Positions 813 to 29,287 of a stretch of DNA of 64,000 nt are shown here, piece by piece. Origin of the DNA: Lysobacterales bacterium (GTDB lineage: Bacteria; Pseudomonadota; Gammaproteobacteria; Xanthomonadales; Ahniellaceae); assembly GCA_031391205.1 (NCBI GenBank), contig JANMUE010000446.1, positions 6,030 through 70,029 of the forward strand, read 5' to 3'. The notes below the pieces were generated by a model, which worked only from the letters and a program-made list of their open reading frames with translations, did not search any database and had not been told where the DNA came from. Positions within the stretch are counted from its first letter, which is position 1. Each line of letters starts with the position of its first letter. Made by a program: the position numbers and the translations under genes.

Positions 813-912
813 AGAACTTCCTGCACGAAATGGATGATGCGGCGACGATTGAACCACGGGCGTGGTCGTGGCCTACACAGACAGGCTCGATTTCGGCAAT
901 GTTGCAGCGCGC

Positions 913-1503: not shown

Positions 1504-1522
1504 GGTTGTTCCTGGACAAATC

Positions 1523-1596
1523 GCAGGCAAATGTTCGGAATCGAACAAATGCCTGCGCGGTGTTCTTCGACTTCGCGTTGCCGAACAGTATGTTCG
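1523..1596. promoter_or_regulatory. Two palindromes sharing TGTTCG/CGAACA half-sites in the TetR/ABC divergent intergenic region (candidate TetR operators)
   Basis: 1523-1556 is GCAGGCAAATGTTCG-gaat-CGAACAAATGCCTGC (13/15 inverted repeat). 1582-1596 is CGAACA-gta-TGTTCG (perfect). Both lie between the TetR start (1503) and the ABC ATPase start (1630). Confidence 0.45.
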
Positions 1597-1629
1597 AAAA
1601 CACGACTATTGAGAACGGCAACGGCCACG

Positions 1630-4742: not shown

Positions 4743-4881
4743 GGAAGCTCTGAATAAGCCACCACTTCGACTTCGCTCTACAGCGAAGTGCTTGCCACAC
4801 CCTAAAAAAACCTGCGGTTTTTCGCCCCTGACTCAGGGGGCTATCACGACTCTGGACTTGTTCAGAGGCTCTCTCTAGAGG
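4740..4881 (+). repeat. MITE-like repeat, copy 1
   Basis: Shares ~130 bp with 13386-13526, 15783-15988 (inverted) and 37758-37895. Terminal inverted repeats are GGGAAGCTCTGAATAAG ... CTTGTTCAGAGGCTC, with an internal palindrome CCCCTGACTCAGGGGG. It is flanked by CTAG on both sides. Confidence 0.85.
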
Positions 4882-4888
4882 ATCGATT

Positions 4889-5005
4889 ATGAAAAAGAAA
4901 TGGGCTATTGGTATTGCTGTAGTCGTCATCGTTCTGATTGCCGCTCATCTGTTGATCCAGAACATGGATCCGGCCGGATTCATGCGTGAGTTGCATGGAA
5001 TGTGA
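4889..5005 (+). CDS. Small hypothetical membrane peptide (38 aa)
   Basis: Own reading: GAGGA Shine-Dalgarno 6 nt upstream of the ATG. MKKKWAIGIAVVVIVLIAAHLLIQNMDPAGFMRELHGM has a single TM helix. It is below the ORF-track size cutoff. Confidence 0.35.
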   Translation: MKKKWAIGIAVVVIVLIAAHLLIQNMDPAGFMRELHGM

Positions 5006-5225
5006 CGATCCGGCTTCCTTGTCGGCAAACCATACACGTCTCGAAATGTGTGCGCAGAGTGGCTTGGAAGGCAAAGTTCTTGTGCCTGTGCGAACCATCA
5101 GTAATGACCTGCTCCAACCGCCTGCCGCTGACCGCGTAAGCGTCGGAGCGACTCACTGAAGAATCGGCGCTGACGCACACGTCAGCACGACGATTCACAC
5201 CGAGCGTTCGGTCACATGATTCGAA

Positions 5226-6954: not shown

Positions 6955-11403
<4,449 letters not shown>

Positions 11404-13385: not shown

Positions 13386-13526
13386 TTACGGAAGCTCTGA
13401 ATAAGTCCCCACCTCGACTTCGCTCAACAGCTTAGTGCTTGCCACACCCCCAAAAACCTGCGGTTTTTCGCCCCCTGACTCAGGGGGCAGTCGCGGCTCC
13501 GGACTTGTTCTGAGGTTCCTTAGAGG
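13386..13526 (+). repeat. MITE-like repeat, copy 2
   Basis: Same family as 4740-4881, in the same orientation. It is flanked by TTAC/TTAG. Its right TIR supplies the TAA stop of track ORF 13520..13795(-). Confidence 0.85.
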
Positions 13527-13795
13527 GCACACCAGAAGGCGGCGAGGCCCCGGTCTGAGGTGCAGAGCGCAATGGGCCCCAATCCGGCAACCGTCAATCT
13601 CGCCAGCATTTCCACAGATCTCAAATCGGAGGCCGCATTATGTGCCTGGGCAAATCCATAGGTCTTCTCAGGTTTCAGCACATGCCGGGCGATGGAAGGC
13701 GTGCCTCCATTCTTGGCGTCGTAAAGGCACGCGAGAGCTGCCATGACCGCAAGCGAGCGACCCGTGAGCTTCAGACTCCGGGCGCATTCGAGCAC
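13520..13795 (-). CDS. Hypothetical protein, possibly a gene fragment truncated by the MITE
   Basis: 91-aa track ORF with a GTG start and no recognisable motif. Its stop codon lies inside the MITE terminal repeat. Confidence 0.25.
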   Translation of the reverse strand: MLECARSLKLTGRSLAVMAALACLYDAKNGGTPSIARHVLKPEKTYGFAQAHNAASDLRSVEMLARLTVAGLGPIALCTSDRGLAAFWCAL

Positions 13796-14105: not shown

Positions 14106-15602
14106 TCACTCGAAGCCATCCAAAAACATTACTTCCTGGTACTGGTACATCACTTGCACTGCACCGCCATCGACGTAGATACCATCGTATCCAGCTGCGC
14201 CGATGGCAAGGTCAGCGCGGTTGTCGTTGTTGAAATCGCCGACCGCGAGGGCGTTCCCGAATCCATCATCGTCATGCGGTGCGCCAATCTGCAAGGGTGC
14301 GCGCGGCAAGATTGCGGTAATGCTGCCGATATCCAGCTCTTGTTCGATTTCCCCACTGACCACCCATACCGCGCCCGCATAGTCCACCCCATCGACAGTC
14401 GCGTTGGGTGCGGCAATCGCCAGGCTGGCGCCCGCGCAAAAATCAATGATTACGCAATAGCGCGCTAGGCGCCCAGTCGCCAATACGCTCCCAAAGCCAC
14501 CGTCGTCGCTGGGATCGCCGCCCGGCAATGCTGGAGCGGTGAAGCGCTGATCGCGGGTGGCAGTCAATCCGCTCGGCCCGCCATACAGCACATGCACGGC
14601 GCTGTTCGATGTGAATGAATAGGGCGCACCGATCGCGAGATCGTACGAGTCGTCGCTATCGAAATCTCCCGCTGCCAATGCCTGGCCAAATCGCCGCGTG
14701 TTGGCGCAGGTGCCCGCGATGTTCTGAACGCCTGGGCGCCAGATATGCGACTCCGCAGTGGTGATCCCACTCGCACTGCCATTCAGCACCACGACAGCGC
14801 CGGCGGCTGTGGTGCCATCGGGGCAGAGTGCATGCGATATGCCGATTGCGAGATCGTCATCATTGTCGCCATCGAAATCGCCCGCGGCCAGTGCGTCACC
14901 GAACCGATCATCCTGAGTTGGCGGAAACGTCAACCCGTCATTGTTGCGATTGAAGAGCTGCGCCCCACTGGCAACGATGCCGGAACTGCTACCGTAGGTC
15001 ACCATCACCGCACCGGCATTGACCGCTCCGCTGACTGTTTGACCGTCCATACCGATGGCCAGATCCGCAAACCCATCGTTGTCAAAATCGCCGGTCGCGA
15101 GGCTTGCGCCCAGAGACGCATTGGATTGCGGCGAGCCCGGGTATGCGCCGCCAGCACGAATTTCGCTCTGCACCGACCAGGTCCCATTGGTTGCGCGGTT
15201 GATCACGTACACCGCGCCCGCTCCAGAAACGCCGTCGGCGCTCACTGCGATCTCGTCGCGTCCGTCGCCATCGAAATCGCCGGCGACCATCTTGGTGTGA
15301 TGTTCTGGTATCTGGATCGTGGTCGATACGAACTGCGCCCCCGCTGATCCCAGCTCTCTATCCACCCCCAGCATCACGCGCAGTCGCGTGGGCTCACCCG
15401 TCATGCTGGGCGTCTCGGACACCGCCAGATCGTCGACCCCATCGCCATCAAAGTCGCCCGCCACCACACCTCTGCCGAATTCAGAGAAGGCTGCGTTTGC
15501 ATAGGGGTTCTGAATGAGCACATTATCGAGCGGCCCAAGCTGATCGCGAGCAAGTGCCGACGGCGCGACCCATCCCGCGCCGAGCAGGATCGCGCAGTAC
15601 AT
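14106..15602 (-). CDS. Secreted FG-GAP (integrin-alpha-like) repeat protein
   Basis: Track ORF 14106..15758 trimmed to MYCAILLGAGWVAPSALA (signal peptide). It has repeated FG..GDFDGDG / GDFNNDNRADLAIGA calcium-binding FG-GAP units and ends in ...VMFLDGFE. Confidence 0.85.
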   Translation of the reverse strand: MYCAILLGAGWVAPSALARDQLGPLDNVLIQNPYANAAFSEFGRGVVAGDFDGDGVDDLAVSETPSMTGEPTRLRVMLGVDRELGSAGAQFVSTTIQIPEHHTKMVAGDFDGDGRDEIAVSADGVSGAGAVYVINRATNGTWSVQSEIRAGGAYPGSPQSNASLGASLATGDFDNDGFADLAIGMDGQTVSGAVNAGAVMVTYGSSSGIVASGAQLFNRNNDGLTFPPTQDDRFGDALAAGDFDGDNDDDLAIGISHALCPDGTTAAGAVVVLNGSASGITTAESHIWRPGVQNIAGTCANTRRFGQALAAGDFDSDDSYDLAIGAPYSFTSNSAVHVLYGGPSGLTATRDQRFTAPALPGGDPSDDGGFGSVLATGRLARYCVIIDFCAGASLAIAAPNATVDGVDYAGAVWVVSGEIEQELDIGSITAILPRAPLQIGAPHDDDGFGNALAVGDFNNDNRADLAIGAAGYDGIYVDGGAVQVMYQYQEVMFLDGFE

Positions 15603-15782
15603 TGATAGAAAAGGTTGTTGGCGGTGGGTGATAGTTGACACGGCACGGCTCCGGTTTGAGTGGCTGCTTGTCTCGACATCACGAGAATTGCAGCGCGCGG
15701 GGGCCAACCGGCGGCGATGTCGGGATCGGCACCGCGGTCGTGATTTCGTGCCCATCACACGGCATCCGAACCTTTGAGCCGT

Positions 15783-15988
15783 CTAAGAATTCTCTGAACA
15801 AGTCCGGAGCCGCGATAGCCCCCTGAGTCAGGGGGCGAAAAACCGCAGGTTTTGACCGGCTCCGCCGTTGAAAACCGGGGTGTGGCAAGCACTAAGCTGT
15901 GTGGCGAAGACGATGTGGTGACTTATTCAGAGGTTCCCTAAGCTGTAGGGCGAAGTCGAAGTGGTGCCTTATTCAGACGTTCCCTAAG
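15783..15988 (-). repeat. MITE-like repeat, copy 3 (inverted, with internal insertion and duplicated end)
   Basis: Reverse complement of the family consensus. It carries ~25 extra bp (GACCGGCTCCGCCGTTGAAAACCG) and a tandem second copy of the ~45-bp terminal segment (15943-15988). It is flanked by CTAA. Confidence 0.8.
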
Positions 15989-16013: not shown

Positions 16014-16655
16014 TCAGCGGCGAACCATGTAGCGAAGATCCTCGGCAGCCGCGTCGATGAGGTCTGCGATCAGCGCATCTGCCAGCATGCGGTTGACATT
16101 CGGAGAGGGCGGGAAGGGGGTCTTGTTCAGCGTACGCTCGTTGAGCGCGAAAGCGTCTGCGTTAGCGTTCATGGAACTGCAGTAGGCAATGCCATCCAGG
16201 TCTGGGTAGGCTGCGTAAAGGGCCACGGCCCAGCGTTGCGCACGCGGGCGCGGCCCCGAATGGATTGCCGTGGACGCACCCATGCGCGTTGCAAACACGC
16301 CGGTCAGGTCGAGCAGGGTCAGGTCGGCGGCAAGCGTCCACGCCGCCAGGTAGGGTTGGTTCCTGTGAACATCGACGATGCGCGACCTCTGGTAGACCTC
16401 TGCCAAGCAGGTCTGGGCCGTGCGCGCGGCATACAAGACTCCGCGATCCTGTCGATGCGGTGACCCGTGCGCATCTCGCAGATGATGATCAAAGCGCGAC
16501 ATCGTGGGTCCCCAGTAGCGGAACTGATTCCATACCGAAGGATGGCTTCCGCCGGCGAATCCGATGCGCGCCAGTGGCGTACCAGCGCTCAGGGTGAGCG
16601 TAGTGGGCGTCAGCGAACGCAGCCGGTCCGGTCGAGGCAACGGCAACTTTGCCAC
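16014..16655 (-). CDS. RES-domain toxin (RES/Xre type II TA family)
   Basis: 213 aa with RFD...AEVY...YCSS spacing consistent with the R-E-S signature. The start overlaps the stop of the upstream antitoxin-like gene by 1 nt. Confidence 0.8.
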   Translation of the reverse strand: MAKLPLPRPDRLRSLTPTTLTLSAGTPLARIGFAGGSHPSVWNQFRYWGPTMSRFDHHLRDAHGSPHRQDRGVLYAARTAQTCLAEVYQRSRIVDVHRNQPYLAAWTLAADLTLLDLTGVFATRMGASTAIHSGPRPRAQRWAVALYAAYPDLDGIAYCSSMNANADAFALNERTLNKTPFPPSPNVNRMLADALIADLIDAAAEDLRYMVRR

Positions 16656-17254
16656 TACATATCGTCCACGATCGCGAGCACGGCCTCCACATCACCGGTC
16701 TGCAGCAACCAATCGCGGGGCGAGATGCGCGCATTCGCATTGTCTGCGCTGACGGCAAGATCCGCTGTGGGCGTCAGGAACCACATCGCAAAGGCCAGCG
16801 GCGTCACCTGCTCGCCAGTAGCGGCCAGTACCTTGGGAAGTCCGGGCACTTCGACCGTACCCTCGAACTGGAAGCGGGGTACACGCTTTTCGCCGTTGAG
16901 CTCGATCGCGAGCAGCGAGTGATCGCGGATGCGTTGGCGGATGCGGCTGGGATCCAGGCCGAGCTTCTTCGCCAATTCGGCAGGCGTGTCTGCATTGTTG
17001 AAGAGGTCGAGGAATGTCGAGGCGTAACGGACACGCGCCGATTCGGCCCGTTCGCGGGTCTTGGACGTGGTGCGCAGCCCAATGGCAGCAAGTGCTTTCA
17101 GCTCTGCCGCCGGCAGCGCCGGTTCGATGGGATGCATCGAAGGAAGCAGTGAGGTGAATCCTTCACCCAGCAGGACACGTTCGGCAATCCGCAGACGGTC
17201 CTTGCGGGACAATCCGCCCAGAGCCTCTTCGATCGCTTGCACCGCAGCGTTCAT
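16655..17254 (-). CDS. Xre/MbcA/ParS-type antitoxin (DUF2384-like C-terminus)
   Basis: Track ORF 16655..17341, start uncertain (M30 used). It has an HTH-like middle (TPAELAKKLGLDPSRIRQRI) and a C-terminus ISPRDWLLQTGDVEAVLAIVDDM typical of RES-partner antitoxins. Confidence 0.7.
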   Translation of the reverse strand: MNAAVQAIEEALGGLSRKDRLRIAERVLLGEGFTSLLPSMHPIEPALPAAELKALAAIGLRTTSKTRERAESARVRYASTFLDLFNNADTPAELAKKLGLDPSRIRQRIRDHSLLAIELNGEKRVPRFQFEGTVEVPGLPKVLAATGEQVTPLAFAMWFLTPTADLAVSADNANARISPRDWLLQTGDVEAVLAIVDDM

Positions 17255-17500
17255 TCGCGCAATCTCCCGTCGGGAATACACGGGAATCATCCTACAGCAT
17301 GCACCGAAACTCAAGCAGGGGCTGAACCTGAAGGGGTCCAATCAGAATTCGGATCGTAGAGTTACGTTAAGCCTCCGGCTAACCTCGTCACGTCACCGCA
17401 GCGGCACGCAGTGTCAAGGCCTTGGCATTCTCACAAACGGTTCTTGAAAGGCCATTCTCAATTGAGTATCATCACAGCGAGTTTCAGTAAGGATCAACAC

Positions 17501-17731
17501 ATGGGACAGCTCAATCGCATCACACAGCAGCCCGAAGTTATGGGTGGAAAGGCCTGCATCCGTGGCATGAGAATCACCGTTGGCATGGTCGTGGGGCAAG
17601 TCGGCGCGGGATACAGCATCGATGCCATTCTTGCCGACTATCCCTACCTTGAGCGTGAGGACATCATGCAGGCACTGCGCTACGCCGCATGGCGTGCGGA
17701 AGAACGCGAGGTCATGCTGGCCACAGCATGA
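17501..17731 (+). CDS. DUF433-family antitoxin-like protein
   Basis: Trimmed to MGQLNRITQQPEVMGGKACIRGMRITVGMVVGQV...DYPYLEREDIMQALRYA, the canonical DUF433 pattern. Confidence 0.85.
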   Translation: MGQLNRITQQPEVMGGKACIRGMRITVGMVVGQVGAGYSIDAILADYPYLEREDIMQALRYAAWRAEEREVMLATA

Positions 17732-18102
17732 AGTTGCTCGTCGATATGAACCTGTCGCCGCGTTGGATCGGATTGCTGGAAGGCGCCGGCATCGAGGCGG
17801 TGCATTGGTCGTCGGTTGGCGCGAGTAATGCTCCAGACGCACTGATCATGGCCTATGCAAGCGCGAACGGCTCCATCGTGCTCACACACGATCTTGACTT
17901 CGGCACAATCCTCGCCGCAACGCACGGCGAGAAGCCTAGCGTCGTGCAGATCCGCGCTGAGGATGTCAGCCCAGACGTGATCGGCACGCAGGTCATTCGC
18001 GCGCTGCGCCAGATGGCCGCAGACCTAGAGGAAGGCGCGTTGATCACCGTTGATCCCAACCGTACGCGGTTGCGCGTGCTGCCATTGCACCCGAGAGACT
18101 GA
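17728..18102 (+). CDS. DUF5615-family PIN-like toxin partner of DUF433
   Basis: Trimmed to MKLLVDMNLSPRWIGLLEGAGIEAVHW...IVLTHDLDFG. There is a 4-nt ATGA overlap with the DUF433 gene. Confidence 0.8.
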   Translation: MKLLVDMNLSPRWIGLLEGAGIEAVHWSSVGASNAPDALIMAYASANGSIVLTHDLDFGTILAATHGEKPSVVQIRAEDVSPDVIGTQVIRALRQMAADLEEGALITVDPNRTRLRVLPLHPRD

Positions 18103-18108
18103 CACGCC

Positions 18109-18666
18109 ATGTTGATCGGCTATGCGCGGGTGTCGACGCAGGATCAAGACCTTGATCTTCAGATCGACGCGTTGACCAAGGCTGGATGCACGAAGGTCTT
18201 TGACGACAAGCTCAGCGGTAGCCGTGCCGAACGCCCCGGATTGACCCAGGCGCTGACCATGCTGCGAGAAGGAGACACACTGGTCGTCTGGAAACTTGAT
18301 CGACTGGGTCGCAGCGTCAAGAACCTGATCGATCTGGTCGGTGGGCTGCGCCAGCAATCCGTGCAATTCAAGAGCCTCACCGATGCCATCGATACCGGCA
18401 CACAGTCGGGCCGTTTCTTCTTCCAAGTGATGGCCAGTCTGGCTGAGATGGAGCGCGAGTTGACGGCGGAACGCACCCGAGTCGGGTTGGAAGTCGCTCG
18501 GCAACTTGGCCGCAAGGGTGGGCGTAAACGGCAGATGACAGATAGCAAGATCGAGTCGGCGAAACAGCTGCTCGCCAACGGCATACCGCCGCGTGACGTA
18601 GCTGAGAACCTCGGCGTATCTGTGCCCACGTTGTACCGATGGATACCAGCATCAGCGCAGCCTTAA
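18109..18666 (+). CDS. Serine recombinase (resolvase/invertase family)
   Basis: MLIGYARVSTQDQDLDLQ...LVVWKLDRLGRS catalytic domain plus a C-terminal HTH (VAENLGVSVPTLYRW). It starts 6 nt after the DUF5615 stop. Confidence 0.95.
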   Translation: MLIGYARVSTQDQDLDLQIDALTKAGCTKVFDDKLSGSRAERPGLTQALTMLREGDTLVVWKLDRLGRSVKNLIDLVGGLRQQSVQFKSLTDAIDTGTQSGRFFFQVMASLAEMERELTAERTRVGLEVARQLGRKGGRKRQMTDSKIESAKQLLANGIPPRDVAENLGVSVPTLYRWIPASAQP

Positions 18667-18673
18667 CGAAAGT

Positions 18674-18844
18674 TGTGTCTGACGCCGAGAAACCACCCCC
18701 GATCTAAACGCCTGAAATACCTGGATTTGTCTATCCTCTGAGGCGGGTTGTTCCTCGTCATCGCCGCGAACAAACCACCCCGGATTCGCTGAAACGCCAA
18801 CAAATGCCCCCGTTTTGCCTGTGCCGCCAACAAACCGCCACCGG
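18674..18844 (+). repeat. Array of four direct ~20-bp repeats plus TGTCT motifs, between the resolvase and tniQ 3' ends
   Basis: The repeats are CGCCGAGAAACCACCCCCG (18683-18701), CGCCGCGAACAAACCACCCCGG (18762-18783), ACGCCAACAAATGCCCCCG (18794-18812) and GCCGCCAACAAACCGCCACCGG (18823-18844). The last three are phased at exactly 30 bp. TGTGTCTGA lies at 18674-18682 and TGTCTAT at 18728-18734. Confidence 0.7.
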
Positions 18845-18875: not shown

Positions 18876-20393
18876 CTACCGTTTGGTGCGCTTTGGAATT
18901 GATGGGCTACTCCGAGGTGGTCGCCGGCCGAGCAAGTTAATTTTCCGACGCTTGGTTCTATTCACAGGCTTTGGCACGGGCAGGGGAATGTCGATGACTC
19001 GACGGATGCGGGCTCCTGGGGTTCGAACCCAGCAGATTCGAATGGCCGTGATGCCGTCTCCATCGCTCGCGAATTCCACAACTGGAACTTGCCAGAGCAA
19101 AGCTGAGCAGGAAGTCTGCTTTTCCAACAATAGCCGCAGGAACGCCTCCAAGCCTTGGGAATAGCCTTGGCAGAGAAGCCGTTCCAAAGCGCGTGCGAGC
19201 CGCCAACGCCCTCTGATCGTGCCGAGTGTGCTCGCTCGGGTTGCTTGAACGGACCGTTGTAGCACTTCAGTCTCGGTACCAAGTTTGGCGATCACTCTGT
19301 CGATCAAGCGACCACATGTCTGGAGTGTCATGGAATCGACCGCCGACAGATTGAGCCAGGTGTCCCGATTTACGGCGAGTCCGTGCGGCGCGATGAAGCA
19401 ATCGGACCGGTTGATGATGTTTTCCGACAATGCCGAATGTTCTTCGAACCCCTTGAGCGTGACCAACTCCACCGGTGTTGGTGAGTCCGCGGGGAATAGA
19501 CCAATCACCTGTTCGGTGACCGCGCTGAGTAAGGAATGCACGTTGGAGGGCAGTGGAAGAAAGGTCAGGGAGCGATCGTTACCTAATGCGCTCCATCCCC
19601 AAAATGCCTCCTTGCTGGGTTCGTCAGACTCCGGTCCTTCAATTTCCTCGATCATCACGTGACCGGCTCTTCGGCATTTCGTATACGGTGTCAGTTCTTG
19701 CGGCAGCCGGGCGAGCTCAGCGAATCCTCTCAGCGACGGCTGGGTAAGGTTCGGAATGATCAAGTGCCGTGTTTGTCGTTGACTAGCTGCCCAATCGAGA
19801 TAGCGACTTAGCCACTGGTTCGATTGCGCGGTTGGAAACGACCACATGTCGACGGATGCGGTATTCACCTGGAACGGATCATTGCCACAGGCGCACCGAC
19901 CCAACCGTCCCTGTTCGTCGAAGCGTCCGTGCATCGGTTGTCCGCAGCGTGCGCAGGCATCAGAAAGAGACTTCCCGTGCCATGGACAGCATTCGATGGA
20001 GGGAAGTTGGAACAGGGTAGTGTGGTAGCCATGCTTGGCGCACTCGGGGCAACTCCGGACGGGTCGTGCAAGTTTCTCGAACGCACCGTCGGTTCTGAGC
20101 GGGCTCCAGGCTTCTTCACTCCAATACGTCGCGACATCCGTTTCCTGCAGTCCGACTGCTGACAGAAACCGAGTGCGCTGTTTGCCTGCAAGCTGGGTGG
20201 CAAAGAGCACATCGAGATCACTTCTGAATCTCAGTCCGAGCAATGAAAATATCTCAGTGCGCTCGGGGCAGGTCAGGCGAGTGATACGCAGCAGGAGACC
20301 GTAGCCTGAGATAAACGGGTACGGTTCGATCTCGGCGCCCAAGAGACACGGCTGATCGAGGCGCGAAGCGACTATCTCCGACCAGGACCTCAT
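18876..20393 (-). CDS. tniQ: TniQ/TnsD-family target-selection protein
   Basis: 505 aa with an N-terminal TniQ region and Cys/His zinc-ribbon motifs (CPECAKHGYH...CCPWHGKSL...CARCGQPMHG...CACG). Confidence 0.8.
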   Translation of the reverse strand: MRSWSEIVASRLDQPCLLGAEIEPYPFISGYGLLLRITRLTCPERTEIFSLLGLRFRSDLDVLFATQLAGKQRTRFLSAVGLQETDVATYWSEEAWSPLRTDGAFEKLARPVRSCPECAKHGYHTTLFQLPSIECCPWHGKSLSDACARCGQPMHGRFDEQGRLGRCACGNDPFQVNTASVDMWSFPTAQSNQWLSRYLDWAASQRQTRHLIIPNLTQPSLRGFAELARLPQELTPYTKCRRAGHVMIEEIEGPESDEPSKEAFWGWSALGNDRSLTFLPLPSNVHSLLSAVTEQVIGLFPADSPTPVELVTLKGFEEHSALSENIINRSDCFIAPHGLAVNRDTWLNLSAVDSMTLQTCGRLIDRVIAKLGTETEVLQRSVQATRASTLGTIRGRWRLARALERLLCQGYSQGLEAFLRLLLEKQTSCSALLWQVPVVEFASDGDGITAIRICWVRTPGARIRRVIDIPLPVPKPVNRTKRRKINLLGRRPPRSSPSIPKRTKR

Positions 20394-21376
20394 GCGGCTG
20401 CGTCCGGCGCCAGCAGCTTGGCGCGAACGAACTCCAGCCTAAGATAGCCGCTAGCCAAAAGTGCTTGCTTGACGTGATGCGATTTAAGTTCACTGAACCC
20501 CTTTTCTTGTGCAGCGACATTGGCGAGCAGATATCTTACGGTGAGCGTGAACGTGGCCATCGGCCATGCTTCGCTTTCAGGCAGCTTGTACTCAGATCGC
20601 AGCGCTTTGACACCATCCAGAATCAGCCCTGCTTGCTGGGAGAGTGTCCATCCGTTGTCGAACGCACCTTGAGCGAAGTAGCGCGTGAAGGACATGTCTG
20701 GCGTAGGCCAAGTCGCATACCGGTCATACCGATCCAAAGCATGCAGAGTATCCGCAGCACTTATCAGCGGCTGAAAGGCGTGTGTCGCCATGAACCACCG
20801 CCGAACCATGTGCGACGGGTACTCGGACCAATCGTCGGTGACGTCGATGCCGGTCGCATCGCTCTGTCGTACAAAGACGAAGAACAGCCGAAGCCTTGCG
20901 TCGGTAATCTGCTCGTCGACGTCGGCAAGGTACTCGTACTCGGCACGACTGATGCGTTGGGCATTGTCGATAAACATCACCATAAGCGTTTGGCGTGCTT
21001 GTCCGCATCGTGTCTTGACGAAATTGACGATTCGATCCTTACCACGCTGAGGACTGAGTCGATCGGCGTTCGTCAGCTTGAGACGGTTGTTCATTGCAGT
21101 GTAAAAGGCGCTGTCGCTGCGCCTTTGACCGCTTGGCATGATCAGACGAGAAGCGACTCCGATGGGCTTATGTTGTGCGTCAATGAGCCACAGCGACACG
21201 TTTTGAGTGAGGTATTCCTGAGCGGATGTTTTACCTAGCCCGCCGCCGCCATAGACAGGAACACCATGATGATCTTCTTCGACGTTGTGCAAGATGAAAT
21301 TTGCCAAACCTTCGATCGGCTTGGTGTAGATATGAAATCCGTTGGGGATAAAGATGGGATGCTGTTGTACAGACAT
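20390..21376 (-). CDS. tnsC: TnsC/TniB-family AAA+ ATPase
   Basis: 328 aa with Walker A GGGGLGKTS. The Walker B region reads LMVMFIDNAQ (Asp-Asn where Asp-Glu is expected). It sits between the DDE transposase and tniQ. Confidence 0.8.
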   Translation of the reverse strand: MSVQQHPIFIPNGFHIYTKPIEGLANFILHNVEEDHHGVPVYGGGGLGKTSAQEYLTQNVSLWLIDAQHKPIGVASRLIMPSGQRRSDSAFYTAMNNRLKLTNADRLSPQRGKDRIVNFVKTRCGQARQTLMVMFIDNAQRISRAEYEYLADVDEQITDARLRLFFVFVRQSDATGIDVTDDWSEYPSHMVRRWFMATHAFQPLISAADTLHALDRYDRYATWPTPDMSFTRYFAQGAFDNGWTLSQQAGLILDGVKALRSEYKLPESEAWPMATFTLTVRYLLANVAAQEKGFSELKSHHVKQALLASGYLRLEFVRAKLLAPDAAA

Positions 21377-21457
21377 CAGCCGACTCCTTTAGAGTATTGC
21401 GGGAACCCGCAATCTGAGCGTGACCGGTCGCAAGAATTCGCAGCGGAGGAGGGTCGA

Positions 21458-23314
21458 TTAGTGATCACGGGTCTCATCCAGACTGACCCAACCGCGGCGC
21501 GGAATTTGAAGCGGCGTGTCCAGTTGCGGCTTCGGCGCTGGTGCCTGAAAATTTGGATGCTGCTGCTGCATCCGGGCGAGCTGATCGACTGCCTGTGATG
21601 TGTAGGACGCGAGTTTTCGGAGATGCTCAATGTAGGCCGAGACAGCACAGTCTGCACCGACAATACTCAGTCCGCCGGGTTGTTTGCACCATTGCATGAT
21701 GAGGGCGCGCGTTGTTTGGTCATGGCGCGTGCGGTCCCACGGCTTGGCCGCGCGCACTACACCGATCGGCGTGGTGACGCTACGGTATAGAACGAACGTC
21801 CTCAGGTCATGGCGATTTATCCGCGCGTAGACGGTCTTGCCTATCAGTTCCCAGTTCGCGTCTAATTCGGGGCAGCGATAGCGAACGTACATATAGTTGA
21901 CATGCGGCATGATGCCGTATTTTCGATTGCCCTTCACCACTAGAGGGACCAGTACGCTTCCCATGTCGATGGCATCCTTTTCACCATCGGGCGACGTAAA
22001 GTCCCACGCGCGGGGCGACTGCATTTGCAGGAACTGAAGGGGGCTGAGATTTCCAATGGCTGGATGCGGAGTGGCGTTGTAGTTTGCAACGATCACGTCC
22101 AATAATTCTTCGAACAAGTGCATCTGAATCGGGAAATCCTCCGGCGCAAAGTTGCTGATGCGGATCTTGTTGTCACCCAATCGCTTCGCCGGTTCGAAGC
22201 CTCCAGGGACTTCCCGCAAAACACCCATTTCCAGCCGTGAGAAGAATTGCTCGATGATCGGCCGAGAACGCGGTTCGTGTGCGAAGCCAAACACAAGGAT
22301 GCCCCCGTGCGCACGGCAAAATCCTTGTTCGAAATCCGCCGAGTGGTGCGCCTTGGCATTATCCATCGCGATGGTGAGTGCACGACGCGCGCCGAGATCG
22401 CCAGGCATGCCGCATGCACCGGGCGCATACTCCAATCCGGGAATGGTGAGGGTGCGTCGCGTCCATGGCTGCAAACTTTTGGCTACGCAGGCGGATGAAT
22501 CAAGATTGTTGTAGCTGAGGCCGATGCGTAGCGTCCACGACACGATTGCGCGCGACTCCGTTTCGATCTCGCACAGCAACCACATAGTGGTAATCGGTCG
22601 CTTGGCGACACCACCGTTCGGCATCGCCACGCCAACGACGGCCTCGATGTCGATTCGATGCGCATCGAACTCGGCGCGAGAGAACGGGCGGCCGCGGAAC
22701 AGGTCGGATAGCACGGTTGGAGCTTCCTTGCCCTCATCCAAATCCCCGAACGGTGCGGTATCAATCCGTCGCTGACGCAGGAACCGCAGCAGCGCACGCC
22801 GACCCTGGTCCGGCTGATTCAGGGGATAGCAGTTCCCAAGGTCCAGGCGGCGGAGCTCAGTCAATATCTTGGAATGCAGACGGACGAAACTCTTCGGGGG
22901 CTTGCCCCTTGGCAACGGTTGACTGTAAGCATCTACCCAGCCGGCAATCTTGGGCTGCGCCGCCAGCATGGCCGTCATTGCATGTGGCCCCCCCTGTGTA
23001 GGCATAGTCGACAGCGTGTCAGCAGAGCTGGTGCGGTGATACGCACCCCAGGGCACGCAAACGCGGAATCCGTAAGGTTGCCCATCTGGTGCGAAACGCG
23101 GCGCACGCTCGATCATCGACTTGAGCCTTTTGCGGCACAGTCCGTTCATGCGTGCCGCCGACGTCAATCCCATCTCGCCCGACAACGCGGCCATCAGTCC
23201 TGCGCAACCGCTTTCGTACCGGGCACGAAAAGAGTCCTTGAGTGACGAGGCGAGAGGCTTCGGCCACGCCTCAAGTTGCTCGACGGAGTACACAGCAATG
23301 CGCTCACGCGCCAC
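21458..23314 (-). CDS. tnsB: TnsB/TniA-family DDE transposase (rve/integrase core)
   Basis: 618 aa with candidate D-D-E residues in FDAHRIDIEA, TIAMDNAKAHHS and PIIEQFFSRLE. Confidence 0.88.
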   Translation of the reverse strand: MARERIAVYSVEQLEAWPKPLASSLKDSFRARYESGCAGLMAALSGEMGLTSAARMNGLCRKRLKSMIERAPRFAPDGQPYGFRVCVPWGAYHRTSSADTLSTMPTQGGPHAMTAMLAAQPKIAGWVDAYSQPLPRGKPPKSFVRLHSKILTELRRLDLGNCYPLNQPDQGRRALLRFLRQRRIDTAPFGDLDEGKEAPTVLSDLFRGRPFSRAEFDAHRIDIEAVVGVAMPNGGVAKRPITTMWLLCEIETESRAIVSWTLRIGLSYNNLDSSACVAKSLQPWTRRTLTIPGLEYAPGACGMPGDLGARRALTIAMDNAKAHHSADFEQGFCRAHGGILVFGFAHEPRSRPIIEQFFSRLEMGVLREVPGGFEPAKRLGDNKIRISNFAPEDFPIQMHLFEELLDVIVANYNATPHPAIGNLSPLQFLQMQSPRAWDFTSPDGEKDAIDMGSVLVPLVVKGNRKYGIMPHVNYMYVRYRCPELDANWELIGKTVYARINRHDLRTFVLYRSVTTPIGVVRAAKPWDRTRHDQTTRALIMQWCKQPGGLSIVGADCAVSAYIEHLRKLASYTSQAVDQLARMQQQHPNFQAPAPKPQLDTPLQIPRRGWVSLDETRDH

Positions 23315-24029
23315 GGGTCACCTCCAGAATGGCTTGGGTGGCACCTGGCGTGTATTCGATCTGGCGGAGCGTGCCATCGTGGATCATGGCGGCCACCACG
23401 GCGCGGACACTGGAGGGGTGAAATGTCAGTGTCTGGATCAGATTCGCGAGCGTCGTGCGCGCGCTGTTGGCAAGAAGTCCGAGAATCTGAGCCCTGATCA
23501 GGGAACGCGCCGCGATCCTTCGATATGCCCACACGTGATGCAATAGCTCGAAAGACGTTATGCAATCGGCCATCGACGAAATCATTTCTCGTTCGGTGAT
23601 GTAGGTCAGTCGAATGCCGTGGCGTTCGGCAGCCGCGTCCAACGCGTCTCTGTCTCGAATGGCTACGGTGCCAGTAGTGCTTCCAGAAGTCCCGGCGTTC
23701 GGGACGGCGAGATAGAAGCGTTCGTTGCCATTGCGATCCCGCGTCCAGAACGATACGTCGATCTCCTGGCGCGCTGACAATGCAATACGGCGCGGTCGCT
23801 CCACGTAGCAGAGCAGGTTGGGATCGAATTCGAACTTCAACGCGATCGCCACATGCAAGAACTCGGCTATCGTGACGACGCGATCATTGCGCGGTGAATG
23901 AAAGACGAAAATTTCTCGTCTACTGCGTTCTCCGCGCGACAGCATCCGCGGCTGATAGGGCAGATTGGACGATGTTGGATGAGCGACAACTTCTTGATCG
24001 ATTCGCGTGGCAGCACTACCAGCAGTCAT
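23304..24029 (-). CDS. tnsA: TnsA-like endonuclease-fold protein
   Basis: Track ORF 23304..24098 trimmed to MTAGSAATR (GGAG sits 8 nt upstream). The N-terminal region (TIAEFLHVAIALKFEFDPNLLCYVERP...EIDVSFW...RFYLAVPN) aligns by eye to the TnsA nuclease fold. A C-terminal winged-helix-like segment follows. Confidence 0.7.
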   Translation of the reverse strand: MTAGSAATRIDQEVVAHPTSSNLPYQPRMLSRGERSRREIFVFHSPRNDRVVTIAEFLHVAIALKFEFDPNLLCYVERPRRIALSARQEIDVSFWTRDRNGNERFYLAVPNAGTSGSTTGTVAIRDRDALDAAAERHGIRLTYITEREMISSMADCITSFELLHHVWAYRRIAARSLIRAQILGLLANSARTTLANLIQTLTFHPSSVRAVVAAMIHDGTLRQIEYTPGATQAILEVTRGA

Positions 24030-24209
24030 AATTCGCTCCAGTTGGAGTGGAAGACACCCAGTTGAAATTGGGCACACAGGCGACGAGGGCGCGAGCAAGT
24101 CGAATTCGCGTGAGTGCGAAACCGAACGGCGGTCGCTCGCGGGAGGTGAGTGAGGGCCGACGACAACTGGCCGTCTATCGCTATACGCGCAAGCGTTGGT
24201 CGCGGGGCG

Positions 24210-24491
24210 CTACGTCGCGAAACGCGGTCTCAGGCGACAGCTGAGAATCGTTTCCGAAGGTACGTCCAGCAGGACCGTGAGTACGTGCGGTCGTTCGACG
24301 CTGCCGGCACCTTTTGACCAGTGAAACGCAAGTCTCTGATCCAATAGAACGTATGACCTCGGACAGGTCCGATGGTGGCGTGAACGCTGTCTATTGGCCT
24401 GACGAGCTGCAGCTACATCGCGCGCTCGACGCGAAGACATGGTGATGTGCGCCGTCGAGATATCGAGCGGCACCTGTGAGTAACAATGCAT
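24210..24491 (-). CDS. Possible small basic protein upstream of tnsA (very uncertain)
   Basis: An internal ATG of track ORF 24210..24539 is preceded by GGAGGA 5 nt upstream (MHCYSQVPLDISTAHITMSSRRARDVAAARQANRQRSRHHR...). It has no recognisable domain and weak GC3 bias. Confidence 0.25.
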   Translation of the reverse strand: MHCYSQVPLDISTAHITMSSRRARDVAAARQANRQRSRHHRTCPRSYVLLDQRLAFHWSKGAGSVERPHVLTVLLDVPSETILSCRLRPRFAT

Positions 24492-24578
24492 GGTTCCTCC
24501 AGCGTACGTAAATTTGGGCAATACTTGACCACAGCCCAAAAAAGTGCGACGCTGAAGGTATGAGGCCTTATGGCATCG

Positions 24579-24610
24579 CGGGACCCTGGCAGGGGTCCCG
24601 TTTTCTTTTC
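24579..24610 (+). terminator. Rho-independent terminator-like hairpin with no obvious upstream plus-strand gene
   Basis: Stem CGGGACCC, loop tggcag, stem GGGTCCCG (8-bp GC stem), followed by TTTTCTTTTC. The U-tract is present only on the plus strand. Confidence 0.55.
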
Positions 24611-24860
24611 CGGGGCTGGAAAATAGTCGATCGAGACGATTAGGGTGTCTTGGGCGTTGCCCTCCTGATCAGCGTTTCGGTGCACCGGGTTAACGGGTTG
24701 GACTCGTGTGCTACGGCTGGCTGTGCCGAGCGAGGCCCCTGCGGACACTCTACTTCTGGCCCATCGCCAGACAACTGCCGTCATTCCTCGAGGCACACGT
24801 TTCGACGGGTGCCCCGTGATGGCGACGGTGGATCGTATCCGTTGATATCTATGGCGTGAT

Positions 24861-24895
24861 AGAAGTAACAAATGCTCGAATGTTACTTCTTGACA
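24861..24895. promoter_or_regulatory. Perfect 10-bp inverted repeat overlapping a TTGACA hexamer, just upstream of ORF 24903
   Basis: AGAAGTAACA-aatgctcgaa-TGTTACTTCT (24861-24890). TTGACA lies at 24890-24895. The site is AT-rich relative to its surroundings. Confidence 0.4.
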
Positions 24896-24902
24896 TCTTG
24901 AA

Positions 24903-26006
24903 ATGACTGATATTTACGAGCGATCAGCGTGGATGGAGCGTCGTCGTGGGCATCTGGCGGAAACGCCACCGAAGCGTCGCAGAGACAGAGTGGACTCGGT
25001 CAGAACGGCTTACTGGTTTGAAGTGGTCAAGTTCCGCACTGGACTCTCAAGCGCCCGTCAGTTGGAAAAGCGTTTTGAGCCGGGCGCGTTTGCAACGAGC
25101 AGCCTCGGAGTGAGCTACTACAAGAACAAATGGGGCGCGTACGCACGAGGACTGCATGTTCCTCGTTCGTCTCTTGTTGATTCCGTCGACGCTGAATTGT
25201 CCGGAACTTATGCCGAGCTGAACCACGTGTTATTCGACATACTGCGCCTAGGCGCAGACTTTGCCTCGCAGATTCCTCGGTGGATTGATCGCCTCGATCG
25301 CAGTATTCGTGACCTGGTCTACGTCAAGTCTACGAACCTTACAAAGCGCTTCGAAAGACGGCCATGCTCTCGCCGCGTGCTCAATGCGTTGGAACGCCGC
25401 CCCTGCTTAGATTCGCTCGCGATGCTTGTCATACTGTTGTATGACGCACGCCAAGCGAACGTTACCCATAGCCATAGGGAGCCTCCAAGCTGGAGGGAAA
25501 TCTGCCACAAAATTTGTACCATGATGTTGGTGATTTCTCTGGAGCCCCCAATCGCTCCCGTTGCTAGGCATCTCTACGCTTTGGTTTGCGAACGGATTTT
25601 TTCCCCGCTCGCCCATGATGACGCCGTGAGGCTGGACTGGCAGGACGTCGACTTTGAGGAGGACTGCCTCATTCTTCATATTGCAAGCAGGCAGTACGAG
25701 CGCGGTACAGGCGTTGTGCCAACGTCTCAGGCGAAACGCTTGGGTAATCTGGTTTTTCTCTTGTATGGCGGTGCAGGGTTCGACGTGTGGTTTGCGCTTC
25801 AGCCGATGTTCGTTCCGATCGAGAAGCGTAGTAGTGCGAACGATCCGGATTACGTTTTTTTAGATTGGCACCGGAAACTTCGAAGGCTCGCAAGACGAGT
25901 GTTACTCAAGGGTGGCGCCATACCAGCTTCTGCCTTTGTGTCTCTTGTGTCTGAGCAGCAGAACTGGCGTCGCTTGGTAGATGGTCCTGACTCGTCGGGT
26001 GAGTGA
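24903..26006 (+). CDS. Hypothetical protein (367 aa), no recognisable domain
   Basis: Long ORF in lower-GC DNA with no competing ORF of similar length. I could see no motifs. The start may instead be the downstream Met at 24933. Confidence 0.6.
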   Translation: MTDIYERSAWMERRRGHLAETPPKRRRDRVDSVRTAYWFEVVKFRTGLSSARQLEKRFEPGAFATSSLGVSYYKNKWGAYARGLHVPRSSLVDSVDAELSGTYAELNHVLFDILRLGADFASQIPRWIDRLDRSIRDLVYVKSTNLTKRFERRPCSRRVLNALERRPCLDSLAMLVILLYDARQANVTHSHREPPSWREICHKICTMMLVISLEPPIAPVARHLYALVCERIFSPLAHDDAVRLDWQDVDFEEDCLILHIASRQYERGTGVVPTSQAKRLGNLVFLLYGGAGFDVWFALQPMFVPIEKRSSANDPDYVFLDWHRKLRRLARRVLLKGGAIPASAFVSLVSEQQNWRRLVDGPDSSGE

Positions 26007-26161
26007 TGCGGATAACAACCAGCGCAAGGCAAGTGTTGCTGAGCAGCCGCACTGAGTCGTAATTGTTTTAGAACTAACCAGTTCGGCAGGCGGCGTTGTC
26101 GCGTCAAAGGTGCGGTAGTCAGACCCGTTTGCGAGCGTCGTATCTTCGCTTGCGCATGTCG

Positions 26162-26935
26162 TCAGCCACGGCCGACTGTCGGTTTCAACGATTTCACCAA
26201 GGCTAGTTCGTTCGGCGGTTCGGTCCAATAGAGCGAACCCAGTTGACTCGCGAATAGCAACATCGAATCACCCATGAGGCTGTATGGTTGCAGAGATCGC
26301 GGGCGAAAGCCTTCGAAGGTGCCACCCAGCGCATAGCCCAGACGATGAGAACTCGCGAGCATGCCGGCAATCGCGTTGCGTGTTTGCTGCGGGTTGAATC
26401 GAGAGCGAAGGCATTCCATCGAGCCGTGTCGCACTGCTGACCAGATCAGATACTTCCACTGCACCAGCGATAGGTCATCCAAATAGTGTGCCGGCAGCCA
26501 ATCCAGATCCGCCGACCAAGCCGGCTCAAGGCCATGCTTGGCCAGTTGGAATTCGAAGTATCCCACGCACTCGGCCCGGATCAGAGCTCGCCATACGGCA
26601 ACCAACTCATCCTGCGACGACGGCGCGCATGAGTACTCGCGCAACAGATCCTCCAGGTGGGGTTCCAAGCCGGCGAGTTGCATCGTTGGCCAGACAAAGT
26701 CCCAAGACAGCTGCTCCATCGGTGTAAGGTAGCCACGGGGTGGTAATTCCCAGCGTGCCGCGGGCCATGGCACGTCGATGATGCCTCGTAGACGAAGCGC
26801 GTCCAGAATGTGGACCGTCATCGCTCGTGTAGGGCTTACCGATCGCCGAACTCCACGACTTCTGACAAGCGCCAGCAAGCCGCAGGCCTCATAGACGCCA
26901 AGGTCCGAGAGATGTTGGGCGTGGGCGGTAGGCAT
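26162..26935 (-). CDS. Hypothetical protein (257 aa), no recognisable domain
   Basis: Long ORF convergent with 24903..26006 and divergent from the XRE regulator gene. Confidence 0.6.
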   Translation of the reverse strand: MPTAHAQHLSDLGVYEACGLLALVRSRGVRRSVSPTRAMTVHILDALRLRGIIDVPWPAARWELPPRGYLTPMEQLSWDFVWPTMQLAGLEPHLEDLLREYSCAPSSQDELVAVWRALIRAECVGYFEFQLAKHGLEPAWSADLDWLPAHYLDDLSLVQWKYLIWSAVRHGSMECLRSRFNPQQTRNAIAGMLASSHRLGYALGGTFEGFRPRSLQPYSLMGDSMLLFASQLGSLYWTEPPNELALVKSLKPTVGRG

Positions 26936-27041
26936 CAGCGCGACACAGATTGGGGTCGGGCGTCTAGTCTAAGGACTTCTTAGTATTCAGGTGCGTTCCG
27001 ACCTAACACTCTCTTGAGCACACTCCTAACTGGGTCTGCTC

Positions 27042-27359
27042 GTGCCATCTGCCTTCCGCCCACCTCAAAATCCAGTCCCCAAGCGACTGATGGAGGCACG
27101 CACGCGAGCAGAATTGTCTCAAAAGAACCTAGGAATTCTCGCAGGCATGGATCCGTCGGTCGCCTCGCCGCGGATCAACCAGTACGAACGTGGCAAGCAC
27201 GTCCCGACCTACAGCACCCTGGCCCTGTTAGGTAGAGTGCTGGGTGTCCCGGTCGCCTATTTCTACTGCGAAGATGATGACTTGGCCGAGCTGTTGAATG
27301 CCTATACCACGGCACCAGAACGAGAGAGGAAGAAGATACTTCGCTCGCTGGGCAAATAG
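27042..27359 (+). CDS. XRE-family helix-turn-helix transcriptional regulator
   Basis: KRLMEARTRAELSQKNLGILAGMDPSVASPRINQYERGKHVPTYSTLALLGRVLGVPVAYFY is a typical Cro/C1 HTH. GTG start. Confidence 0.8.
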   Translation: MPSAFRPPQNPVPKRLMEARTRAELSQKNLGILAGMDPSVASPRINQYERGKHVPTYSTLALLGRVLGVPVAYFYCEDDDLAELLNAYTTAPERERKKILRSLGK

Positions 27360-27525: not shown

Positions 27526-27941
27526 ATGCCAATGTCGGCGCGATTCGAGCGGGTCGAGCAGTGGTTGCCCCAGCGCCTGACCCCTTGGGATGGCGACCAG
27601 GAACGCATCGAGCGGCTGCACGCGCAACTGGTCTGGTGCTCCAATGGCGCGCCAATTGAGAACAAGTTGCCGCGTCGATCGGCACTAGCCTGCGTTCGCT
27701 GCGTCGCTGGATCGGCGGTTCCGCCGGCATCGCGCCCAAGCAACTGGAGCTTTCCGGTCGCACCCTGCGCTTATGCGCAGCGCTCCGCGAACGACCAGAC
27801 CTCGCGATCACCGCGATTGCGCACCAACTCGGCTTTTCGGATCAGGCTGCATTCGCCAACGTTTTCCATGCACAAACAGCGAAGATGCCGAGCGCCTTCC
27901 GCGCCGAACCTCTGGTTTTTTACGAGCGTGGACCAGGGTGA
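27526..27941 (+). pseudogene. AraC-family regulator remnant (frameshifted and short)
   Basis: Frame A (track ORF 27526..) reads ...NGAPIEN. The next frame, after an in-frame TGA, reads EQVAASIGTSLRSLRRWIGGSAGIAPKQLELSGRTLRLCAALRERPDLAITAIAHQLGFSDQAAFANVFHAQTAKMPSAFRA, an AraC double HTH. This implies a 1-nt indel near 27655-27665. The total length is far below a normal AraC protein. Confidence 0.6.
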
Positions 27942-28660: not shown

Positions 28661-29287
28661 ATGTCAGCCATCCCGACGAGCAACGCGCTTCCCATTGGGA
28701 AGACGTCTATCTGAGGAAGGAAGCCACCAGCGTCAGCTGGTACCGGAACCACCTGGAAACCTCGCTCGTGCTTCTCGATCAAGCAGGTCTTAAAGCCGAG
28801 AGCCGTGTCATCGATGTCGGCAGTGGTGCTTCTACCCTGGTCGACGATTTGCTGGAACGTGGCCTGAATTCCATCACGATGCTTGACCTCTCAGCCGCGT
28901 CGCCTGATGTTGCAAAGAAGCGGTTGGCAGAGCGGGCTGAACGCGTGCAGTGGATGACGGGCGACATTACCCGTATTGAATTTGCACCAGGGGCCTGCAC
29001 CCACTGATCGTGCGGTCACGCACTTCCTGACCGCGGAAGATGACGAACACGCCTACGCGCACCAGGCTGCACGTGCAATCACCTCCGGCGGCCATACAGT
29101 GATCGGCGGGTTCGCGCCTGATGGACCCGAACGCTGCTCGGGTTTGGTGGCTGCACCACGTTCGCCTGAAGACGTCGCCCGAATCCTCGGGGCACGGTTC
29201 GCATTGATTGACTCCCGACACGAACGCCACAAAACGCCCGGCGGCTCTGCGCAATCGTTCGCCTACGCGTTGCGTCGCCGAGTTTAA
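28661..29287 (+). pseudogene. Class I SAM-dependent methyltransferase, disrupted by at least two frameshifts
   Basis: AGGAG + ATG at 28661 gives MSAIPTSNA.. then a stop. The next frame reads HWEDVYLRKEATSVSWYRNHLETSLVLLDQAGL..VIDVGSGASTLVDDLL (motif I) up to 29007. A third frame (28976..29287) carries the C-terminal half (DRAVTHFLT...GGHTVIGGFAPDGPERCSGL). Confidence 0.7.

Follow-up and report, generated by a model that had tools for sequence, protein, structure and literature searches.

A divergent Tn7-like transposon clade in Xanthomonadales with a putatively non-cleaving TnsA and an altered TnsC Walker B motif

The module described here occupies positions 18876–24029 of a 64,000-nt stretch of Lysobacterales DNA from freshwater sediment metagenomes (contig JANMUE010000446.1; the whole stretch is referred to below as the window). 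It is one copy of an unannotated Tn7-like transposon clade in Xanthomonadales/Lysobacterales. A check of the open reading frames (ORFs) placed four co-oriented genes in this interval, all on the minus strand, and the letters A, B, C and Q are used for them and their products.

23304..24029, minus strand: tnsA-like gene (A), 241 amino acids counted from the Met at codon 24 of the ORF 23304–24098
21458..23314, minus strand: tnsB-like DDE transposase gene (B), 618 amino acids
20390..21376, minus strand: tnsC/tniB-like AAA+ regulator gene (C), 328 amino acids
18876..20393, minus strand: tniQ/tnsD-like target selector gene (Q), 505 amino acids, with a CCCH zinc finger

Counted from the internal Met, A has the same length as its homologs. 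The A and B genes overlap by 11 bp and the C and Q genes by 4 bp, and the A-B-C-Q order was kept in 30/30 loci first fetched. The same four-gene order was found on a conjugative plasmid of Xanthomonas campestris, where all four products are hypothetical proteins in RefSeq, and in four distant plasmid relatives (~25 % identity) from Burkholderia, Robbsia, Klebsiella and Bacillus. The sequence-only reading that preceded this analysis had called the arrangement classic Tn7-like. This description holds for gene order and overlaps, both shared with Tn7 and other TnsA-bearing Tn7-like elements (tnsA-tnsB-tnsC-tniQ/tnsD), but ‘classic’ overstates the case, as A, B and Q had no match in Pfam or NCBIfam at standard or relaxed thresholds. 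When these databases were searched with five genes (the four above and an adjacent serine recombinase), the recombinase alone was recognised, with C giving a sub-threshold match to AAA_22 (9.8e-5); AAA_22 was above threshold in many C homologs. Searches of A, B and C against PDB sequences with phmmer and hmmsearch, from single sequences or profiles, returned nothing relevant. The module was therefore identified from predicted folds and from comparisons between profiles.

The AlphaFold (AF2) model of A (predicted local distance difference test score, pLDDT, 84.5) has a restriction-endonuclease-like N domain and a winged-helix C domain. Its top Foldseek matches were Tn7 TnsA structures 1t0f/1f1z and 9bw1, over the full length, with E ~3e-6 and a probability of 1.0. 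For the B model (pLDDT 79), the best matches were to TnsB of type V-K CRISPR-associated transposases (CASTs) (8rdu, 7svw, 8ea3; E 6e-16), followed by Tn7 TnsB (9bw1, 7pik) and MuA (4fcy). B has no Pfam rve match; its DDE triad D217/D318/E355 aligns to D273/D361/E396 of Tn7 TnsB and is invariant in 110/110 homologs. Q matched the PADLOC models TniQ_IF (2.8e-7) and TniQ (2.5e-5), and 3/14 members of its family matched Pfam TniQ (PF06527). The zinc-finger residues C115, C118, C136 and H139 of Q are invariant and align to the zinc finger of TnsD, and a second Cys cluster is formed by C147, C150, C167 and C169.

Approximately 80–120 homolog clusters were obtained per protein. All homologs with a source name came from Xanthomonadales/Lysobacterales (Xanthomonas, Stenotrophomonas, Luteimonas, Pseudoxanthomonas, Rhodanobacter, Lysobacter and others); most were annotated as hypothetical and few had Pfam domains. 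No description of the clade was found in full-text literature searches or in term searches within the main Tn7-survey papers. It was concluded that 18876–24029 is a genuine, very divergent Tn7-like tnsA-tnsB-tnsC-tniQ module.

The state of the TnsA active site was read from family alignments. A profile search with the A family gave 238 relatives, 71 of which were aligned; among these, 14 matched PF08722, 12 carried a canonical E-D-E-K tetrad and one the Tn7-like E-D-Q-K. Comparison of the close A family with the canonical TnsA-like subset in hhalign (probability 99.8 %, E 2.8e-28) mapped Tn7 E63/D114/Q130/K132 onto H59/S93/L107/V109 of the window protein. The Tn7 TnsA numbering was verified in sequence at 100 % identity, and an alignment of Tn7 TnsA itself agreed with this mapping. 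The corresponding columns were counted in 81 full-length homologs.

A position 59 (Tn7 E63): N, H, C, S and others, acidic in 0/81
A position 93 (Tn7 D114): S in 72, T in 4, A in 3, E in 1, G in 1
A position 107 (Tn7 Q130): L, V, M or I
A position 109 (Tn7 K132): I, V, L, M, F, T or A, with K or R in 0/81

The sequence-only reading had found no catalytic Lys in the motif YLAVPN, and this was borne out: the motif spans residues 106–111 and its Lys column lacks K or R in every homolog. It had also taken the catalytic Glu (IAEF) and Asp (EIDVSFW) to be present, which was mistaken. E56 of the first motif aligns to Tn7 S60, the true E63 column being H59, and D91 of the second lies two residues ahead of the D114 column, which holds S93. 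With the acidic positions gone as well as the Lys, the nuclease site is, on this alignment, lost entirely rather than partly across the family.

One alternative is that cut-and-paste transposition has been kept, either through a re-wired TnsA site (one built from D91, E103 and some basic residue elsewhere, for instance) or through a host nuclease. Catalytic residues do migrate in PD-(D/E)xK nucleases. In addition, D91 is near-invariantly acidic (79 D and 2 E among the 81 homologs) and lies on the same strand face as the Asp column, and E103 is conserved in 75/81. The four canonical positions are nevertheless non-catalytic, the Lys column is strictly hydrophobic, the E63 column is variable, unlike a constrained site, and E103 is also conserved in the canonical relatives, where it is non-catalytic. 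Retention of cleavage by these means is accordingly regarded as unlikely.

In the C protein, the Walker A motif GGGGLGKT is intact. The Walker B motif FIDNAQ corresponds to residues 135–140 and places an Asn at the position of the catalytic Glu, so the replacement noticed in the sequence-only reading is a family feature: position 138 is Asn in 72 and Cys in 4 of 76 homologs and is never acidic, while K49 and D137 are invariant in all 76. The two positions after sensor I read RR, QR or QK in the four outgroups versus V/I-D in the clade, a tentative suggestion that the arginine finger may have been lost as well. Co-variation of the dead TnsA with the Walker B D-N change was considered and rejected on the basis of the outgroups. 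The Burkholderia and Robbsia relatives have a TnsA without the Lys and a TnsC that keeps D-E, and in those from Klebsiella and Bacillus a canonical TnsA is paired with a TnsC that has D-D. Compared with these outgroups, Walker B D-N is specific to the Xanthomonadales clade.

Pairwise ratios of non-synonymous to synonymous substitution (dN/dS) were 0.09–0.15 for A, 0.06–0.18 for B, 0.03–0.12 for C and 0.14–0.18 for Q. Values of 0.03–0.18 in all four genes indicate that the module is not decaying; by these measures the proteins are working ones in which the altered motifs have become fixed. The suggestion of a structural, non-cleaving TnsA is thereby supported, and is the better supported because the catalytic residues are gone family-wide while tnsA is under purifying selection.

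The boundary of the element was located on the tniQ side.

18676..18841, minus strand: tniQ-side end, with the terminal site at 18676–18699 (minus strand ...GGGGTGGTTTCTCGGCGTCAGACA-3') and the terminus at 18676

On the minus strand, the terminal repeat copy of this end finishes ...GTCAGACA. Three inner direct repeats (about GGGGYRNTTTGTTGGCG) follow at 18765–18781, 18795–18811 and 18825–18841. A pattern search gave four sites at this end, and its total count was attained in 0/100 shuffles. The same terminal motif, ...GTCA(A/G)(T/A)CA, was present in ~20 relatives. For seven of these, its position matches to the single base the point at which related loci cease to be homologous, the differing flanks starting precisely at the terminal CA. 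The flanks past the tniQ-side end had no common motif.

Delimited elements were recovered among the relatives. Relatives carry an array of ~17-bp repeats at each end, the two arrays being inverted with respect to one another; their termini read 5'-TG...CA-3', their target-site duplications are 5 bp long, and they are laid out as tnsA-side end, cargo, the altered tnsA, tnsB, the altered tnsC, tniQ and tniQ-side end. The element on the X. campestris CN05 plasmid NZ_CP081990 (L033 1564–24721, 23.2 kb) is flanked by a perfect 5-bp duplication, ACTGC; at its tnsA-side end, inner repeats come after an inverted terminal site, and 17.7 kb of cargo separates this end from tnsA. A mini-element of 2.5 kb in L014 has both ends and the 5-bp duplication CTCCT. 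In Stenotrophomonas (L002/L006), a 6.65-kb element has inverted ends and is flanked by a 28-bp direct repeat at 8458–8485 and 15140–15167. In three loci, the tnsA-side end of a second element was found head-to-tail beyond a resident tniQ-side end, at a distance of 27 bp in L014 (17070–17098), where the second element is the 2.5-kb mini-element, 14 bp in L028 (14591–14606) and ~0 bp in L007 (~14553).

Some neighbouring genes of these relatives were also recorded. On the CN05 conjugative plasmid, the transcription activator-like (TAL) effector gene avrBs3 (L033 26654–29842) lies ~1.9 kb past the tniQ-side end and is followed by IS476, a second IS476 being located within the element cargo. In the Stenotrophomonas loci, two Phage_integrase genes come after the right-hand 28-bp repeat.

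The substitutions could alternatively mark a decaying or host-domesticated module, as the sequence-only reading had also proposed, in which function has been lost or recruited by the host. The absence of the TnsA catalytic residues and the Walker B Glu would fit this, as would the lack of a detectable tnsA-side end in the window copy and its single-copy status in the source metagenome. In contigs from four sediment metagenomes, depth was flat at ~11x over the element and its flanks, with no empty-site or excision joints across the element. Against this, the same substitutions are fixed over 76–81 homolog clusters, with the low dN/dS given above in four genes, and the TnsB triad is invariant. 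The genomic settings of the clade are also varied and include a conjugative plasmid; intact ends and 5-bp duplications are found among its members, one of which is a non-autonomous mini-element. Decay or domestication is therefore considered very unlikely.

Beyond the tniQ-side end lies the serine recombinase gene.

18109..18666, plus strand: serine recombinase (resolvase) gene, 185 amino acids, Pfam Resolvase (8e-45) plus HTH_7

The resolvase gene is, as the sequence-only reading had it, immediately beyond tniQ, 210 bp from the tniQ stop codon. This is true of its position only: the gene is read from the other strand, converging on tniQ, and its own stop codon (18664–18666) is 9 bp outside the terminus at 18676. 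No resolvase homolog was found by tblastn in the other 35 loci fetched (~25 distinct places), and no serine resolvase is present inside the delimited relatives (L033, 23.2 kb; L014, 2.5 kb; Stenotrophomonas, ~6.7 kb). The protein is 84–86 % identical to plasmid recombinases from Fukatsuia, Sulfuriferula, Polaromonas, Pseudomonas and Xylella, and its gene starts 6 bp after the stop of a DUF433/PIN-like toxin–antitoxin pair. Being outside the terminus, absent from related loci and closely similar to recombinases on unrelated plasmids, the resolvase is flanking neighbour DNA that does not belong to the element. The idea that a conserved tyrosine recombinase stands in as resolvase was also rejected, since the presence of such genes near members of the clade is no more than sporadic.

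Two explanations that give the resolvase a role were weighed against this evidence. The first, from the sequence-only reading, is that the module is an intermediate between Tn7 and Tn5053/Tn402, with a non-cleaving TnsA and an adjacent serine resolvase resolving the cointegrates. The short distance to tniQ speaks for it, as does the inverse correlation of tnsA loss with resolvase gain across Tn7-like elements (PMC8649781). A convergent gene that stops beyond the mapped terminus, has no homolog in other related loci, plasmid-borne relatives included, and follows a toxin–antitoxin pair at 6 bp, as in plasmid or Tn3-type modules, does not fit such coupling; nor does the close identity to recombinases of unrelated plasmids, or the lack of a serine resolvase in the L033, L014 and Stenotrophomonas elements. 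This architecture is accordingly held to be extremely improbable. The second is res hunting of the Tn5053 type, with TniQ sensing resolvase-bound DNA and directing insertion beside the resolvase gene. Tn5053-family elements are described as targeting res sites (as cited in PMC8649781), and the terminus is just 9 bp from the resolvase stop codon. The insertion is nevertheless at the 3' end of the gene and not at an upstream res site, the ends at all other loci are without a resolvase nearby, and the flanks beyond the tniQ-side end share no motif, which leaves this explanation with next to no credibility.

Two toxin–antitoxin pairs are located beside the resolvase. The first comprises a RES-domain toxin (16014–16655, minus strand) and an Xre-like winged helix-turn-helix antitoxin (16655–17341, minus strand), and the second a DUF433 protein (17411–17731, plus strand) and a DUF5615/PIN-like protein (17689–18102, plus strand). 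In the source metagenomes, contig depth over window positions 15467–15933 was >1000x versus ~11x in the flanks. Repeats of ~130 nt resembling repetitive extragenic palindromes or miniature inverted-repeat transposable elements (REP/MITE-like) occur in direct and inverted copies at 4740–4871, 13386–13531 and 15775–15987.

For the clade as a whole, it is considered probable that transposition is replicative, that TnsA is structural and TnsC ATP-locked, and that the resolvase is a neighbour only. Under this model, TnsB would nick the 3' ends of the element and join them to a staggered 5-bp target. As TnsA would be unable to cut the 5' strands, the donor would stay attached in a Shapiro intermediate, and replication would then duplicate the element, yielding cointegrates from intermolecular events and inversions or deletions from intramolecular ones. 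TnsA would be kept for its architectural role, as a bridge between TnsB and TnsC. TnsC would act as an ATP-bound, poorly hydrolysing switch, which should weaken the target immunity driven by TnsB. Because no recombinase is conserved in the clade, resolution of cointegrates would probably fall to the homologous recombination of the host or to unlinked recombinases acting in trans. The resolvase gene would simply be part of the DNA beside which the window copy landed.

Several of these steps have published counterparts. With a TnsA active-site mutant, 149/150 products were cointegrates (PMC9881144), and the nuclease-dead TnsA retained by Streptomyces telomeric Tn7-like elements has been interpreted as structurally required (bioRxiv 10.1101/2024.11.13.623437). 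The Tn7 TnsC substitutions E233K/A/Q leave ATP bound and not hydrolysed, and transposition becomes de-regulated and immunity-insensitive (bioRxiv 10.1101/2021.05.24.445525). For Tn7-like elements without a resolvase, host or in-trans recombination has been suggested to act on cointegrates (PMC8649781).

Other observations weigh against replicative transposition as outlined. The conserved acidic residues D91 and E103 of A have been described above, and the loss of nuclease activity in TnsA, like that of ATPase activity in TnsC, is inferred from sequence. N138 of C aligns to Tn7 TnsC E233 with a weak hhalign probability of 21 %. Walker B mutations abolish CAST transposition (PMC9881144), so the effect of the D-N change in TnsC is uncertain. 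No cointegrate-like arrangement was seen in a genome, though no search aimed at such arrangements was made. The Stenotrophomonas copy is flanked not by a 5-bp duplication but by a 28-bp direct repeat, ATAAATGGTACAAATCAT(C/G)TTGCTCTCT. Finally, scans with a position weight matrix, nhmmer and regular expressions detected no tnsA-side end in the whole 64-kb window. Lacking a recognisable tnsA-side end, the window copy may be truncated on that side or stranded, and may be unable to move as a unit.

Candidate tnsA-side ends at 34045–34063, ~50117, ~51570 and 27631–27669 were rejected as coding sequence or as being without repeats. A compact element ending just 5' of tnsA was also sought within 900 bp by blastn-short and regular expressions, and only weak look-alikes were returned. 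Examples are TGGCCAACGAC... in L009/L013 and TGTGTGCCCAA... at ~24078 in the window; they were rejected, as the fully delimited relatives have the real end and its repeat array far upstream, with the cargo in between. Rfam and transfer RNA (tRNA) scans of the window found nothing. With no tRNA gene in the window, there is no tRNA attachment site.

A stronger version of the replicative model is that the lineage has fully switched to replicative, immunity-free transposition, with a scaffold TnsA, a TnsC locked with ATP through the loss of the Walker B Glu and apparently of the arginine finger, and tandem arrays of cargo islands. New copies would then land head-to-tail 0–27 bp from resident tniQ-side ends, in Xanthomonas, Stenotrophomonas and relatives. 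The head-to-tail adjacency in three loci fits weak target immunity, but could alternatively reflect a shared attachment site, and a complete switch of this kind is regarded as doubtful.

Comparison with known systems places the clade close to Tn7 in build. Both have the TnsA fold, a TnsB/MuA-type DDE transposase, an AAA+ TnsC (putatively so in the clade) and a TnsD-like selector with a CCCH zinc finger, and the relatives share with Tn7 the repeat arrays at both ends, the TG...CA termini and the 5-bp target duplication. Unlike Tn7, the clade has the TnsA E/D/Q/K residues all replaced, Walker B D-N in TnsC and no TnsE; its cargo lies between the tnsA-side end and tnsA and not beyond the selector genes; and at standard thresholds its proteins escape the Pfam models for TnsA, rve, TnsC and TniQ. 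Clade elements are found 0–27 bp apart, a spacing that Tn7 target immunity would forbid.

The closest precedent for a dead but retained TnsA would be the Streptomyces telomeric family, which likewise keeps tnsA despite an altered active site, read as structural with replicative strand transfer. This is the one trait that the two have in common. The Streptomyces elements are, however, one-ended, located at the telomeres of linear replicons and tied to telomere-maintenance genes, whereas the present clade is gammaproteobacterial and occupies circular replicons, with two inverted ends, 5-bp duplications and the Walker B change in TnsC. Elements of the Tn5053/Tn402 type (tniA-tniB-tniQ-tniR plus res) have homologs of TnsB (TniA), TnsC (TniB) and TniQ, and replicative transposition via cointegrates is expected for them as for the clade. 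TnsA is absent from them, and a serine resolvase of their own is encoded inside the element together with its res site, in contrast to the clade, which has a TnsA-fold gene and no conserved resolvase, although no direct search for a res site was made. Type V-K CASTs supply the best structural match to B and, having no active TnsA, also form cointegrates. They differ from the clade in the absence of tnsA, in their Cas12k and guide RNA and in their need for TnsC ATP hydrolysis; the window module is without CRISPR parts. We infer that the element works like Tn5053 or a V-K CAST, that is replicatively, but is built like Tn7.

Plant-associated and clinical Xanthomonadales, Stenotrophomonas maltophilia among them, widely harbour the clade, and it falls in a blind spot of surveys, as RefSeq gives hypothetical proteins only and the hidden Markov model sets of Tn7 surveys miss it. 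If the structural reading of its TnsA is correct, it would provide a second, independent natural case of a retained nuclease-dead TnsA, in two-ended elements on circular replicons, and would bear on why TnsA is structurally required. A natural D-N Walker B TnsC could serve as a test bed for the coupling of ATP hydrolysis, target immunity and target choice, a question that bears on how CRISPR-associated transposases can be engineered and cointegrate formation controlled. Were the immunity-free reading to hold, the clade would be a natural combination of de-regulated TnsC and dead TnsA, hitherto represented mainly by laboratory mutants.

On the other side of the module, the following features were recorded upstream of tnsA.

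24030..27359, no strand assigned: tnsA-proximal region, outer boundary not fixed
24517–24622, no strand assigned: conserved non-coding block, ~500 bp upstream of tnsA
24903–26006, plus strand: up367, 367 amino acids
26162–26935, minus strand: up257, 257 amino acids
27042–27359, plus strand: XRE-type helix-turn-helix gene, upstream of tnsA

The region 24030–27359 is probably cargo or accessory DNA of the element, since its genes recur at the same position in relatives and the cargo of L033 is on the same side. Homologs of up367 and up257 (24–33 % identity) were found upstream of tnsA in >10 related loci. Neither protein had a Pfam, NCBIfam or PADLOC match, and up367 was also without a meaningful PDB sequence match; the transposon family may use them as accessory genes, in which case they would not be random cargo. 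Identity in the block 24517–24622 is 77–81 % for L010 and L013; the block can also be aligned in L009 and L011, but its surroundings cannot. Of the terminator-like hairpins in the region, the strongest falls inside the block (24578–24601, plus strand; 10 pairs and a T-run). It is directed away from tnsA and has a TTGAC(C/A) box ~50 nt upstream. The block may represent a very small divergent RNA or have a regulatory function. A small ORF at 24210–24491, also upstream of tnsA, was considered as a fifth conserved gene and rejected, as it is not conserved as a protein.

Further out, at 28768–29287, is an apparently frameshifted S-adenosylmethionine-dependent methyltransferase gene, of which the N-terminal 79 amino acids match Methyltransf_25/11 and the rest is in another frame. 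Among the distant A-B-C-Q relatives, those with canonical TnsA are L035 (Klebsiella grimontii pNY3A) and L036 (a Bacillus mycoides plasmid). At 660–5160, directly upstream of tnsA, both carry a cluster resembling a cyclic oligonucleotide-based antiphage signalling system (CBASS), with nucleotidyltransferase, ThiF-type E1, MPN/JAB and SAVED genes. The gene layouts of the Klebsiella and Bacillus plasmid loci are near-identical.

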